The notes beneath the pieces are model-generated. The model had not been told where the DNA came from. It worked only from the letters and a program-made list of their open reading frames with translations, and searched no databases. The position numbers were made by a program, and so were the translations under genes. 64,000 nt of DNA, from positions 1,064-65,063 of IMG/VR virus record IMGVR_UViG_3300048911_000270, one strand, 5' to 3'. Shown here one piece after another: positions 5,658 to 8,811 of this stretch; within the stretch, counting starts at the first letter, position 1; each line of letters starts with the position of its first letter. The DNA is from a virus.

Positions 5658-6101
5658 TCAGCTCTCGTAAATGCTGGATTCGGCTTCGACCACATACATG
5701 GCCTGAAAGGACGGCCGGTTGGCACTGTCCAGGGGCTGCCCGGCCGGGCTGCCCTGCGGGGTCGAGCCGAACCGGGAGATGTAGACGACCTGCTCACCAC
5801 CGATGACCGGGCGCCCGGCCGTGATGATGACCTTGTCGATGTCCCGGGCCAGTTGCTCCGTCTCGGCGAACACGTCGTTCCACGTCGCCGCAGACAACCC
5901 CATCCGGCCAACGACCTTCACCTGAAAGGCGCGGGCCTCGATGTGACCGTCGACCTGCATGCTCCCGCCGCCGACCGGAGTCACCACGAGGTACTTCCGG
6001 GGCTCCGACGGCGGACCCACGGGCCCTTGGTAGATGACCGGCATCTCCTGGCCGTCCAGGGGCTGCTCTCCCAGCCAGTTCATGAAGTCTCTGGTGAGCA
6101 T
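5658..6101 (-). CDS. Tail terminator-like protein
   Basis: MLTRDFMNWL...FQVKVVGR...RPSFQAMYVVE; position upstream of major tail; ATG overlaps the upstream TGA. Confidence 0.65.
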   Translation of the reverse strand: MLTRDFMNWLGEQPLDGQEMPVIYQGPVGPPSEPRKYLVVTPVGGGSMQVDGHIEARAFQVKVVGRMGLSAATWNDVFAETEQLARDIDKVIITAGRPVIGGEQVVYISRFGSTPQGSPAGQPLDSANRPSFQAMYVVEAESSIYES

Positions 6102-6561
6102 CAGAAGATCCCCAGCGCCTTCAGTTCCTGCTTGGCCCGCAGCTCGTCCTCGGTGAGGCGGTGCACGTTCGGCGGGCGGTGGTAGACCTGGTCGGTCCCG
6201 TCCAGCACTTCCGGGGAGCCCGACGCCCGCAGGTCGTGGAACTCCCGGGGGGCCAGCTCGTAGTACTCCAGGTTGAGGTCTTCCATGGACTCGGCCATCG
6301 CCCGGTGCATGGCCTCCCGGCCGTCCAGAATGGCGTCTGCGAGCTTGTGCAGGATCTCGGGGTTCTTGTTCATCAGCGCCGTGGCCAGAGCCAGCGCGAT
6401 ACCGCCCTGAGGGTGGTTGAACTCGATGCCGACTTCCTGGTAGTGAGCATAAACTGTATGCTAGGTCTGACCTGATCAACAGTGAGAGTGCCAGTTAAGT
6501 CGGTGGCACTCGCGTTGATCAGTTCGTCAATCCCTTCGGAGAAGGAATTACCCATGGACAT
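6101..6561 (-). CDS. HK97 gp10-like tail completion protein, frame-disrupted by a 17 nt insertion at about 6455-6471
   Basis: 5' part M(SM)GNSFSEGIDELIN...TLTVDQV and 3' part VYAHYQEVGIEFNHPQGG...LAPREFHDLRASG join into the family VDQVYAHYQ motif if 17 nt are skipped; strong RBS GAGGAGGTG. Confidence 0.7.
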
Positions 6562-7087
6562 CACCTCCTCGAACTCCGCCGAACCCGCAACCGGTTCCAG
6601 CACCTGCGCTGTGGACGACTGCACGAGCGCCGTGTGGGCCCGCAAGATGTGCTCCCGCCATTACCAAAACTGGCGGCTGTACGGCTCCCCACACGGCACT
6701 GGATGGCACGATCCCGACAACATCCGGGATCGTCGTATCGCGTTCTTCTGGGAGAACGTGACCAAGCAGGGACCTGACGACTGTTGGCCCTGGAATCGCA
6801 AGCCCACGGCCAACGGTTACGGACAACTCCGCTGGCTGACAGGCACCGTTTCTGCGCATCGCGCCGCCTACGAGATCGCTTACGGACAACCCCCGAAGGC
6901 GATCGACGGCAAACGCGTGAACATAGACCACACCTGCCATGACCCGGCGGTATGCAAGCTGAAGACGGATTGTCCGCACCGGCTGTGCTGCAACCCGGCC
7001 CATCTGGAAGCTGTGACCTGGAGAGAGAATTTGGACCGAGGAGACACCAGTCGTCCCGGAAACGGCGGCCTGCCCACGGCGCGATAG
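6554..7087 (+). CDS. HNH homing endonuclease, antisense to the structural operon
   Basis: CWPW...GYG...SAHRAAYE...IDHTC...CCNPAHLEAVTWRENL; RBS GAAGGA. Confidence 0.88.
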   Translation: MDITSSNSAEPATGSSTCAVDDCTSAVWARKMCSRHYQNWRLYGSPHGTGWHDPDNIRDRRIAFFWENVTKQGPDDCWPWNRKPTANGYGQLRWLTGTVSAHRAAYEIAYGQPPKAIDGKRVNIDHTCHDPAVCKLKTDCPHRLCCNPAHLEAVTWRENLDRGDTSRPGNGGLPTAR

Positions 7088-7092
7088 CAACC

Positions 7093-7545
7093 TCACCACC
7101 ACTCCCGGCTGAGGTTGAACTGCTCCAGGCTGAACATGGAGCCCTCGTAGGCGTTCTCCACGACGGGGTTGTCCGTGCGCTGGGTGGACGCGGCGCCCGG
7201 GAGGGACAGCATGATTTCCCCGGTGCGGATCTTTTCCAGCGTCGCCATGGCGGACCCGGCCTTGACCTGCACCGGGTGGTTCTGCGCGATGGGGATGCTG
7301 CCGAGGTAAGTGATCGTGGCGTAGGACGCGGCAAGGTCACGCGAGAGCATGCGCACGATGGGCGGGACGGCGGAGGCCTCGATCGGCAGGGAGTATCGGG
7401 CGGTCAGGTAGCCGTCGATGAGCGCGTCGGCTTCATCGATCTTGTCCTGGATGTCCGGGTCCGGTAACACGGCGGCGCTGGTGGGGTCCATCAGCCCGCC
7501 GGAAGCGAGGGCCGTTCTGACGCTCGCTAACGTGGAGTACGACAT
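7093..7545 (-). CDS. Head-to-tail adaptor (Mu gp36/DUF1320-like)
   Basis: MSYST...IDEADALIDGYLTARYSLP...PPIVRMLSRDLA...LEKIRTGEIML. Confidence 0.8.
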   Translation of the reverse strand: MSYSTLASVRTALASGGLMDPTSAAVLPDPDIQDKIDEADALIDGYLTARYSLPIEASAVPPIVRMLSRDLAASYATITYLGSIPIAQNHPVQVKAGSAMATLEKIRTGEIMLSLPGAASTQRTDNPVVENAYEGSMFSLEQFNLSREWW

Positions 7546-7569: not shown

Positions 7570-7869
7570 TTACTCGGCAGCCTTGGGGCGGCCCGGACGG
7601 CGCGCGGGGGCCTTCGGCTCCTCGGCCTTCTCCTCGGCCTTCTCCTCGGCCTTCTCCTCGGACTCCTTCGGCCCCTCGGCCTCGGGCTCCGCGTCCGCGT
7701 CGGGCTCCACGATCTCGCCGACGCCGTTGCGCACGTGGTACTCCGCGATGGACTGGGGGAGCTTGATCGACTCGCCCGTCTGTACCGGAAGCAGGCTGAC
7801 GCCCCGGTCGGGATGGAAGATCGACGTGTTCGGCCGGGTGACCCGGAACAGAACGTTCGCTTCTGCCAT
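7570..7869 (-). CDS. Hypothetical head-associated protein with acidic EEKA repeats
   Basis: 99 aa; three 12 nt AEEK repeats; C-terminal RRPGRPK. Confidence 0.6.
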   Translation of the reverse strand: MAEANVLFRVTRPNTSIFHPDRGVSLLPVQTGESIKLPQSIAEYHVRNGVGEIVEPDADAEPEAEGPKESEEKAEEKAEEKAEEPKAPARRPGRPKAAE

Positions 7870-7974: not shown

Positions 7975-8811
7975 CTATTTCCCCGGGACGTACTTCTTAC
8001 CATTCAGAATGTCCGACAGAAGCGGGGCCGAAATAGCCTCCTGCTGCGCGAAAGCCGTCCTCGTACCCCTGTGACCAGCAAACCTAGCCCGGATCTCCTC
8101 CGCCCGCTCCACCGTCATCTTCACCCGAGGCTTCCCACCCGACGGCACATAATCCGGATCCACCCACGTCTGGTTCGCCAGCAGATACGTGATAGTCGCC
8201 TTCACCACGCCATACTCCGCCGCCAGTTCGCCGTGCCGGTAGTTGCCTGTCGCATACTTCGCCCGGATCTCCCGGACTAGGGGCCACGTCAACTCGGCGG
8301 CAGGATTGTTGTCTCCCCGGCGGTGCTCCCCGCCCAGGTTGCTGAGGGGGACATAAGCGGGGTCGTGCCACAGCTTGTTCTGGAGGACGTCCTGCACGGT
8401 AGACCGATCGACCTGGAACCGGGCCGCCAAGTCGGCCTGCGTCCACTTGCGGGTGGCGAACAGTTCGCGCAACCACGTGGCATCCGTGCGCGACAGAGCG
8501 GTGGTGCCGTTGATGACGCGGTCGTCCGACTGTTCAGCAGCGGTTCCCCAGCAGAGGTTGGAGAAGTGGTTGTTGAACGGGTTGCTGTCCCGGTGCCGTA
8601 CCTGCGCCTCCGGGAAGGGCTTCGCCCCGTGGAACGCCTCGCAGACCAACGTGTGGACGCGCCGGGAGTACTTCTTGCCGTCGAGGTGCACGATCACTTG
8701 CAGGTAGCCGTGGTTGCCTATCACCGGCTTCACCACCGAGCGCGGGCCGGTGATCTGCCCGTCTTCGCGGATCCGGTACAGGGTGAACGTGGGGTGTGTG
8801 AGTTCCAGCAT
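7975..8811 (-). CDS. HNH endonuclease with three C-terminal HTH-like repeats
   Basis: GYLQV...RVHTLVCEAFHG...VRHRDSNPFNNHFSNLCWGT, then repeated LAAxYGV/LAARFQV modules; TAGCAT -10 box 7 nt before ATG suggests a leaderless transcript. Confidence 0.85.
   Translation of the reverse strand: MLELTHPTFTLYRIREDGQITGPRSVVKPVIGNHGYLQVIVHLDGKKYSRRVHTLVCEAFHGAKPFPEAQVRHRDSNPFNNHFSNLCWGTAAEQSDDRVINGTTALSRTDATWLRELFATRKWTQADLAARFQVDRSTVQDVLQNKLWHDPAYVPLSNLGGEHRRGDNNPAAELTWPLVREIRAKYATGNYRHGELAAEYGVVKATITYLLANQTWVDPDYVPSGGKPRVKMTVERAEEIRARFAGHRGTRTAFAQQEAISAPLLSDILNGKKYVPGK

Follow-up and report, generated by a model that had tools for sequence, protein, structure and literature searches.

The gene that directly follows the head-tail adaptor of this phage is interrupted by 17 nt of additional DNA, which we interpret as a coding gap that ribosomes probably cross by programmed bypassing and, at the same time, as part of a mobile cassette that includes the neighboring HNH endonuclease gene; there are no protein or ribosome-profiling data at present for this locus or its relatives. 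A hop from a GTC to a GTT codon across an HNH-linked insert had already been suggested by a sequence-only reading of this DNA, and the suggestion is now backed by the gaps found in HNH-bearing relatives, the matched codons at the gap borders, the rare or stop codons with which the gaps begin, and purifying selection downstream of them, translation across the gap itself remaining an inference. The window, by which we mean the whole 64,000-nt stretch of DNA analyzed, was taken from an IMG/VR record of 89.5 kb, about 70% complete (relatives measure 125–130 kb). The locus comprises the following elements:

7093..7545, minus strand: upstream head-tail adaptor (Mu Gp36-like; PF07030, E 4e-15; PHROG 195 'head-tail adaptor', E 4e-15)
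6554..7087, plus strand: free-standing HNH_3-type endonuclease gene (177 aa), which fills the space between the adaptor and the neck gene
6564..6570, minus strand: ribosome-binding site GAGGAGG, 8 nt 5' of the ATG at 6555 and within the opposite-strand HNH coding sequence (read from the sequence)
6469..6555, minus strand: neck-module gene part 1 (29 codons), starting at ATG 6555-6553 and ending with the take-off codon GTC 6471-6469
6498-6496, minus strand: TTA, codon 20 of part 1
6452..6468, minus strand: 17-nt insert (coding gap), AGACCTAGCATACAGTT
6468-6466, minus strand: AGA, first zero-frame codon of the insert
6463-6461, minus strand: TAG in the landing frame, inside the insert
6454-6452, minus strand: GTT, proposed landing codon and last triplet of the insert
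6101..6451, minus strand: neck-module gene part 2 (116 codons), starting at the resume codon TAT 6451-6449, read in the -1 frame relative to part 1 and closed by the stop 6103-6101
6371..6375, minus strand: TGATG, in which the zero-frame stop TGA 6375-6373 overlaps the Met57 ATG 6373-6371 of the productive frame
5658..6101, minus strand: downstream gene (147 aa), its start overlapping the neck-gene stop; no Pfam or PHROG match

Across the break, the coding strand reads ...GTT GAT CAG GTC AGACCTAGCATACA GTT TAT GCT CAC TAC CAG, and a second look at the sequence bore out that the next in-frame codon after the take-off site is AGA and that a TAG lies within the insert in the landing frame. The translation of part 1 (MGNSF...LTVDQV) aligned with residues 1–29 of continuous homologues, and that of part 2 (YAHYQEVGIEF...GIF) is 71–85% identical to their residues 30 to end, such that the two open reading frame parts rebuild one protein with no residue gained or lost at the join. 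The break in this minus-strand gene of about 145–148 codons is located exactly between VDQV and YAHYQE of the most conserved motif. If the zero frame is followed beyond the take-off codon, 32 junk codons lead to the TGA at 6375-6373. Two details of the sequence-only reading had to be adjusted. The ATG at 6561, from which it started the gene, is in frame but only 2 nt away from the ribosome-binding site, making ATG 6555-6553 with GAGGAGG 8 nt 5' of it the better start; and the TTA upstream of the take-off codon is present, although nine codons away (codon 20) and not 8. Such an upstream TTA was also considered as a general stimulator and rejected, as it was found in the window only among the lineages.

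The designation 'tail-completion gene' given in the sequence-only reading could not be upheld, since the gene has no Pfam, PHROG, or fold match (best Foldseek hit against the PDB, E 0.4; VIA-align Z ≤5.5) and its position follows a Mu Gp36-like adaptor. The gene order on the minus strand is adaptor, neck gene, two small genes, and probable major tail protein, which places the interrupted gene directly after the adaptor and three genes 5' of the major tail protein. A neck or head-closure role, as implied by the name used here, rests on this gene order only.

Alignment with homologues lacking the HNH gene, a check proposed along with the hop, revealed that all of them are continuous at the break and that the insert is absent from all. 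They include gp19 of the Streptomyces phages Stuff and Marky (148 aa; VVVDQVYAKYQHE), the protein of the closest IMG/VR relative, L004 (LTVDQIYAHYQE), and about 35 metagenomic proteins, with the motif …VDQ[VI]YA[HK]YQ… at the position of the break. In L004, the adaptor stop codon is followed by two bases and then by the neck-gene ATG, with neither HNH gene nor insert. Among 30 aligned homologues, V25, Q27, Y29, and A30 are invariant and D26, Y32, and Q33 nearly so, which is why we regard the insert as falling into the most conserved block of the protein; length variation at the break point was not seen in this set. Judged from this conservation, extra residues would be least tolerated at the gap sites in the V25–Q33 block. 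An AlphaFold model of a continuous homologue (pLDDT 84) has a helix at residues 4–15 and a strand at 19–24, and places residues 1–29 as well as 30–56 within the fold; as far as the model can be trusted, both parts would therefore be needed.

The insert is genuine DNA of a widespread phage and not an assembly error. It has the sequence described in the sequence-only reading and recurs in independent assemblies, namely the ENA/megahit assembly L005 (99.8% identical, the sole difference being a 12-nt repeat-length change elsewhere), the Logan assembly L006 (100%), and a 455-nt contig from a further root-metagenome run. In total, 21 runs with 19 study codes, from rhizosphere, root, and soil and dated 2017–2025, contain the stretch, none of them listed as an RNA run. 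A minor insert-free sub-population cannot be excluded because contigs rather than raw reads were compared, and contigs mask minor variants. The idea that an assembly chimera has been mistaken for an insert, or that most of the population lacks it, is nonetheless highly unlikely, considering that assemblies of different samples (ENA/megahit, Logan, IMG/VR) contain the identical insert, that no insert-free contig of the window strain was seen, and that analogous inserts occur in other loci from unrelated samples. A megablast search of the region against 50,697 phage records gave no near match, and an exact-match search of IMG/VR for the insert retrieved no further copy.

The HNH gene lies antisense and head-to-head to the neck gene, the two ATG codons overlapping by 2 nt in CCATGG. 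Its product matches PHROG HNH endonuclease families (E 1e-22), with Pfam PF13392 slightly below the cut-off, and the catalytic H, N, and H residues do not vary across the alignment of the HNH family. At this site, the gene is missing in L001, L002, L004, and 78 further loci and present at 10 further loci. A single-sequence search of IMG/VR with the HNH protein gave no match; a profile search of the same resource returned 160 HNH_3 loci, among which L090 was the sole informative new case, and a scan of genome contigs for the family yielded only two actinobacterial MAGs. No isolated plaque-forming phage with an HNH gene at this site was found, and viability can therefore not be derived from culture.

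The strongest support for a connection between insert and nuclease comes from these relatives. A family HNH gene is arranged head-to-head with the neck gene in 11 distinct loci, the window included, whose neighborhoods we read and compared with 78 IMG/VR loci that have the neck gene but no HNH gene within 1.8 kb. Frameshifting gaps (one or two, of 5–17 nt, at codons 29–38) were present in 10 of the 11 HNH-bearing loci, window included, and in none of the 78 HNH-less loci, all of which have a single uninterrupted reading frame (Fisher p ~2e-12; the loci are related, with some duplicates across samples, and hence not fully independent). The HNH proteins of the family are 42–76% identical to one another, and the overlapping CATG starts are the same in 5 of the 11 loci. 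The gaps, bracketed between the codon before and the codon after, are:

Window: GTC[AGACCTAGCATACAGTT]TAT, 17 nt, the longest gap in the set
L261, first gap: GTA[AGACCCGGGTC]TAT, 11 nt, AGA-led, located at the same codon of the gene as the window gap
L261, second gap: CTT[TTAGCTC]GAC, 7 nt
L170/L171: GTC[TTATACAGTA]TAC, 10 nt
L090 and L175/L176: ATA[TTAGCATA]TA(C/T), 8 nt
L173/L174: ATT[TTAGCATC]TAT, 8 nt
L260: ATA[TTACCATA]TAC, 8 nt
L007: GAA[TTACAGAG]GGC, 8 nt
L008: TAT[TGAAT]CAG, 5 nt
L009: TAC[CATAC]GCC, 5 nt

The two gaps of L261 are nine codons apart and jointly restore the frame. L259 has the HNH gene, with no gap in the portion of its neck gene covered by the contig, while L212, which encodes a distantly related HNH protein at the same site, has a similarly built insert of 9 nt that keeps the frame, CAG[TTACTCCAG]CAT.

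The gap types were conservatively counted as eight independent ones, and two features recur at their borders. In seven of the eight, the triplet that closes the gap encodes the same amino acid as the codon immediately preceding the gap, the pairs of codon and last triplet being GTC/GTT, GTA/GTC, ATA/ATA, ATT/ATC, GTC/GTA, GAA/GAG, CTT/CTC, TAC/TAC, and CAG/CAG; in L008, the landing triplet AAT after TAT is near-cognate only. Seven of the eight likewise begin, in the zero frame, with TTA (five types), AGA, or TGA. The UUA-led gaps are those of L007, L090, L170, L173, L175, L260, L261 (second gap), and L212, and the window gap is led by AGA. Rough binomial estimates put the probability of a chance origin of either border feature between ~1e-5 and ~1e-9. 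Being features at the codon level, they would be predicted if a peptidyl-tRNA in the P site re-pairs at a slow A site, and would be meaningless for splicing or for the mere disruption of a target sequence.

These border features also bear on whether an unknown type of small intron, or editing, removes the 17 nt from the mRNA. An exact deletion at the RNA level would restore the frame just as a hop would, yet we found no evidence of such a process, gaps of 5–17 nt are too short for self-splicing introns, conserved structure was not found, and what is conserved (synonymous borders, a rare first codon) is visible at the codon level. We consider RNA removal exceedingly unlikely.

Under the bypassing model, events would proceed as follows. 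After 29 codons, the ribosome would hold peptidyl-tRNA(Val) on GUC in the P site, facing the rare AGA in the A site. The slow A site would give the peptidyl-tRNA the opportunity to unpair, the mRNA would slide by 17 nt, with the UAG in the gap closing the productive frame to earlier shifts, and the same tRNA(Val) would re-pair with GUU. Decoding would restart at UAU, thereby generating the motif VDQV-YAHYQE within a full 145-residue protein. The junction peptide expected from bypass is ...LTVDQVYAHYQE (...TVDQVYAHYQE); ribosomes that decode AGA in the normal manner would terminate with a 61-residue dead-end product. If the analogy with T4 MobA holds, the HNH nuclease would be likely to recognize the most conserved DNA of the gene, the stretch interrupted by the insert, and a carrier genome may be shielded from its own nuclease with the protein left unchanged; this is an inference, cleavage of the uninterrupted site being untested. 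In sister lineages, the insert might in addition supply an extended -10 box for the HNH gene, a function that is doubtful in the window.

Other forms of recoding, for instance a -1 or +2 frameshift after the UAG of the insert that would add 2–6 residues to the motif, have to be weighed against the hop. The productive frame is open from the CAU at 6460, so that a shift within some 100 nt would rejoin the two frames, and in lineage A (AUA UUA GC AUA) a +2 slip from AUA to AUU is formally possible. On the other hand, the overlap in the window lacks a slippery heptamer, the +2 option is not conserved and fails in L173, L007, and L170, and the motif is invariant without length variation at this point in the 30 aligned homologues. 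Only re-pairing at a landing triplet explains the matched codons at the gap borders. A frameshift thus retains no more than a small probability, and we continue with the hop as the preferred reading.

A mobile insert could also simply have inactivated the gene as collateral damage of HNH invasion, either in a phage for which the gene is dispensable or in a defective lineage. Evolution after insertion is informative here. L173 and L174, which stem from different samples and share a gap, have 5 nucleotide differences within the 40 codons that follow, and each of the four codons affected is changed synonymously in the productive frame but non-synonymously in the other frames (an extra C-terminal frameshift in L173, possibly a long-read assembly error, led us to exclude that part). 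L175 and L176 differ by 14 nt, of which 11 are at third positions; 10 of the codon changes are synonymous and 3 non-synonymous. L090, L173, and L175 keep TTAGCAT[AC] at the same codon, their neck genes having diverged to about 60% identity in DNA and 56–59% in protein and their HNH proteins being 67–76% identical. L007 and L008 differ in their gaps and in their HNH proteins (42% identical) but share 70% identity of the neck proteins; gap type therefore tracks the nuclease lineage. These comparisons show, within what sequence conservation can tell, that gapped genes remain functional in both frames over long evolution; for the lineage of the window, the same is inferred from the family. The window lineage is represented by a single strain, with no diverged variant seen, and selection since the insertion is therefore not measurable in it. 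Inactivation is hard to reconcile with HNH-bearing relatives that keep both halves open under purifying selection over large divergence, with the conservation of the neck gene within the head-tail module of every relative examined, and with the recovery of the same strain in 21 runs and 19 study codes from 2017 to 2025, and it leaves the non-random first and last gap triplets unexplained. Selfish elements may be mildly harmful, however, expression data are absent, and the IMG/VR record is only 70% complete. Loss of function is improbable on balance but cannot be dismissed.

A further alternative is that the gene has been split, yielding two polypeptides, one of 61 residues from the N-terminal part and one of 90 residues from the C-terminal part, the latter re-initiated at ATG 6373. 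The TGATG stop-start overlap invites such an interpretation, gene callers predict the 90-aa open reading frame, and functional split proteins that arose by insertion of a homing endonuclease are known for MobA and MobE (bioRxiv 10.1101/2022.08.31.505936). The window furthermore has Met at position 57, where all 18 close homologues have Leu. We considered this Met as a restart adaptation, an idea weakened by more distant homologues, which lack the HNH gene and naturally have Met at the corresponding residue. No Shine-Dalgarno sequence precedes ATG 6373, Met57 is situated inside the helix formed by residues 49–69 of the AlphaFold model, and translation would skip the 27 codons from the insert to Met57 even though these are intact, consensus-like, and encode the most conserved residues of the family. 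A comparable restart is not evident in the other lineages: the 40 codons after the gap in L173 and L174 contain no Met, hence no fragment start, and change only synonymously. A split gene is unlikely on these grounds, and bypassing of the gap remains the explanation we favor.

The N-terminal 29 codons of the window are 62% identical to close homologues, compared with 78.5% for the C-terminal part. Co-conversion of these 29 codons might account for the difference, but the value lies within ~1.4 sd of the pattern of HNH-less pairs and may be taken as a weak hint at most.

The codons that open the gaps deserve attention with regard to decoding. TTA, ATA, and AGA are rare in this genome of 65.6% GC. 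AGA amounts to ~3 per 1000 codons in a crude set of open reading frames, thus being rare but less extreme than TTA, and neither the host nor its tRNA pool is known. The only tRNA gene in the record is tRNA-Leu(CAA), and two relatives that are 97–100% complete have one each (Leu-CAA and Met-CAT); none for TTA, AGA, or ATA was found in the record or in these relatives. With respect to RNA structure, a 6-bp hairpin (AGCAUA/UAUGCU) is predicted in the window, though the fold is no better than that of shuffled sequences (z -0.94), and no RNA structure or stimulator at the junctions was significant or common to the lineages. The bypass reading also has to accommodate that L259 shows no gap in the covered portion of its neck gene, that the window gap is the longest one at 17 nt, and that no conserved stimulator was found.

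The sequence-only reading had also placed a promoter for the HNH gene inside the insert, on the strength of a match to a recurrent phage motif. This motif, [AG]TGCTAGGGTAGATACAT, is of the extended -10 type (TGnTAGGGT) and occurs before early or middle genes; with ≤3 mismatches allowed, the window contains 24 copies where none would be expected by chance, and they all lie in the interval from 31.8 to 63.8 kb. The element in question is:

6458..6465, plus strand: ATGCTAGG, matching the first 8 nt of the motif, facing the HNH gene about 90 nt 5' of its ATG

The match ends there. The invariant remainder of the motif, GGTAGATAC, is absent from the insert, which continues with TCTGAC and thus shares 8 of 18 motif bases; the would-be -10 element reads TAGGTC and lacks the final T, and a sigma-70 consensus scan of 6250–7250 detected no site. 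The claim is accordingly weak for the window: the left part of the motif is there, the rest is not. Elsewhere in the family, insert plus flank on the HNH strand, ~90–100 nt before the HNH ATG, read TATGCTAATAT in L090 and L175, TATGGTAATAT in L260 (where the base that differs is the unconstrained 'n' of TGn), GATGCTAAAAT in L173, and TATGGTAGACT in L009. Inserts of these other lineages create boxes resembling extended -10 elements, TGnTAATAT- or TGnTAGACT-like, that face the HNH gene. Going by such motif matches, a promoter role of the insert appears plausible across the family and doubtful in the window.

Both precedents named in the sequence-only reading, T4 gene 60 and the phiHau3 terminase, proved accurate when looked up (PMC5009743; bioRxiv 10.1101/2022.08.31.505936; PMC10732093). 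The 50-nt gap in T4 gene 60 confers protection against the homing nuclease encoded next to it, and ribosomes cross this gap from one GGA codon to another while a stop codon occupies the A site (PMC5009743). MobA together with its bypass element constitutes a single mobile element, the gaps of some homologues open with a rare 'hungry' codon, and the T4 bypass cassette has been called unique (bioRxiv 10.1101/2022.08.31.505936). Our locus resembles this system in that a free-standing HNH gene adjoins a conserved gene bearing a non-coding insert ~100 nt away, that insert and nuclease co-occur and are jointly absent in relatives, that the insert resides in a highly conserved region of the protein, that take-off and landing codons are matched, and that the gap opens with a stop codon or with one that is rare in the genome. 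It differs in gap length (17 nt, and 5–17 nt in the family, versus 50 nt), in the lack of an evident take-off stem-loop or nascent-peptide signal, and in the host gene, which encodes a neck-module protein here and a topoisomerase in T4. The nuclease is of the HNH_3 type, as judged from matches to actinophage families, belongs to high-GC actinophages, and is encoded antisense and head-to-head with overlapping starts, and protection is untested; we do not classify it as part of the MobA element. Finally, many gap sequences and positions are found here, as opposed to one homologous cassette in T4.

The phiHau3 terminase gene has two 10-nt UUA-led gaps, and 7-nt gaps occur in two prophages, StrepC.1 and that of S. 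catenulae; full-length terminase was found in Streptomyces, and the junction peptide was identified by mass spectrometry in E. coli (PMC10732093). The phiHau3 gaps were also the subject of Smith et al. 2013, as cited in PMC10732093. Common to phiHau3 and the present family are short gaps in invariant motifs of actinophage genes, UUA as the leading codon (in five sister lineages), the matched landing codon, and the argument that extra residues are not tolerated, with phiHau3 alone having experimental support for bypass. The gene is a different one, however, the window gap has 17 nt and is led by AGA instead of UUA, and our gaps track an HNH gene, while the terms 'HNH' and 'homing' do not appear in PMC10732093.

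Similar short-range hops are known from E. coli, where they take place at stop or 'hungry' codons (Weiss et al. 1987; Gallant & Lindsley; cited in PMC5009743 and PMC10732093), and the mitochondria of Magnusiomyces capitatus have 'byp' inserts. In these systems, too, a peptidyl-tRNA in the P site re-pairs, when the A site is slow, with a cognate or near-cognate codon located a few to tens of nucleotides further 3', near-cognate landing being tolerated. The E. coli cases are synthetic or of low efficiency, and the mitochondrial inserts, 81 in number, are not linked to a nuclease. Compared with both, the present set consists of natural, conserved gaps, all within a single target of 10 codons next to a mobile gene. 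Our literature search found no paper that deals with this neck gene or this HNH family in the context of bypassing.

Although speculative, a more far-reaching scenario can be envisaged in which each member of an actinophage HNH family would come with its own 5–17-nt gap led by a hungry codon. The gap may at once destroy the nuclease target, drive the antisense nuclease gene via TGn/-10 elements, and render an essential neck protein dependent on a hop, and thus on the host supply of UUA or AGA tRNAs and thereby on growth phase. We put this forward only tentatively, as a possibility with less support than the bypassing model for the window.

In practical terms, gene callers give neck genes of this kind as truncated open reading frames of 90–130 residues next to an unexplained intergenic hole. 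Natural bypassing is known from very few systems, and T4 gene 60/MobA has so far been the only one linked to a homing endonuclease. If our reading is correct, the locus would represent a second case, independent and evolutionarily unrelated, in phages of high-GC Gram-positive bacteria, with a new gene and a different nuclease family. The family would then offer at least eight gap types as an allelic series provided by nature: they measure 5–17 nt, begin with TTA, AGA, TGA, or CAT, and span cognate and near-cognate landings, one gene with a double gap, and one in-frame gap. From such a series, the rules governing short-range hopping and nuclease self-immunity could be worked out.

Unusual arrangements of the neck gene, which in the window is broken by a 17-nt insert, were found at three further loci:
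L261:480-750 (SRR29078157), neck gene with two gaps
L212:1789-2313 (IMGVR_UViG_3300036783_000172), 9-nt in-frame insert CAG[TTACTCCAG]CAT
L259:1-330 (SRR21388356), neck gene with the HNH gene present, head-to-head

In L261, one neck gene contains an 11-nt gap that opens with AGA and, nine codons away, a 7-nt gap that opens with TTA; the two restore the frame jointly, recalling the phiHau3 terminase, which likewise has two gaps. The L212 insert adjoins an HNH gene that occupies the same site and is distantly related; the insert could either be read through, adding LLQ, or be skipped by an in-frame hop, both being possible. The L259 neck gene shows no gap in the stretch covered by its contig, and its motif reads VSQ, not VDQ, with unusual codons; this locus may represent substitution-based immunity or an element that has newly arrived.

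As to sequence quality, L173 (ENA ERZ25039540 contig_4161), an HNH-bearing locus whose contig is named in long-read style, has one more frameshift in its neck gene, close to the C-terminus (L173:1700-1800), which is probably an assembly indel, and the L173 junction itself was confirmed by the short-read contig L174. Over 6.3 kb, the sole difference between the window and L005, the ENA assembly of the same strain, is a 12-nt length change in a small gene encoding EEKA repeats (window 7570-7869, minus strand).

Further features of the window are as follows:
6496-6498, minus strand, TTA, codon 20 of the neck gene
7975-8811, minus strand, second gene of HNH_3 type, 278 aa, listed as PF13392 in the gene table of L005
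34308-34390, plus strand, tRNA-Leu(CAA), the single tRNA gene
31810-63830, both strands, motif [AG]TGCTAGGGTAGATACAT, 24 copies at up to 3 mismatches

The TTA codon lies 9 codons (27 nt), about one ribosome footprint, upstream of the take-off codon. Judged from sequence comparison, it is probably incidental, because no counterpart upstream of the take-off codon is present in the other lineages. Complete relatives also have one tRNA only, Leu-CAA or Met-CAT. The second HNH_3-type gene is situated within the structural module, with the major capsid gene on one side and a small gene on the other; since L004, the closest IMG/VR relative, which lacks the neck-gene HNH, has only a shorter version of 166 aa at that place, another putative mobile insertion is suggested. 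Copies of [AG]TGCTAGGGTAGATACAT, of which none would be expected by chance in the window, are confined to its non-structural half, usually with an RBS and ATG 20-40 nt downstream. This is a phage-specific motif, either an extended -10 type promoter or start-associated.

The 3' portion of several inserts (window, L175, L090 and L170 junctions) is an inverted copy of the codons that come next, for example:
window 6441-6466, minus strand, AGCATA…TATGCT
L175 junction, GCATA|TATGC
L170 junction, GTA|TAC

These inverted copies hint, at the level of sequence alone, that the inserts arose when a break at the V29/Y30 boundary was mended by fold-back repair; this boundary may be where the nuclease cuts.
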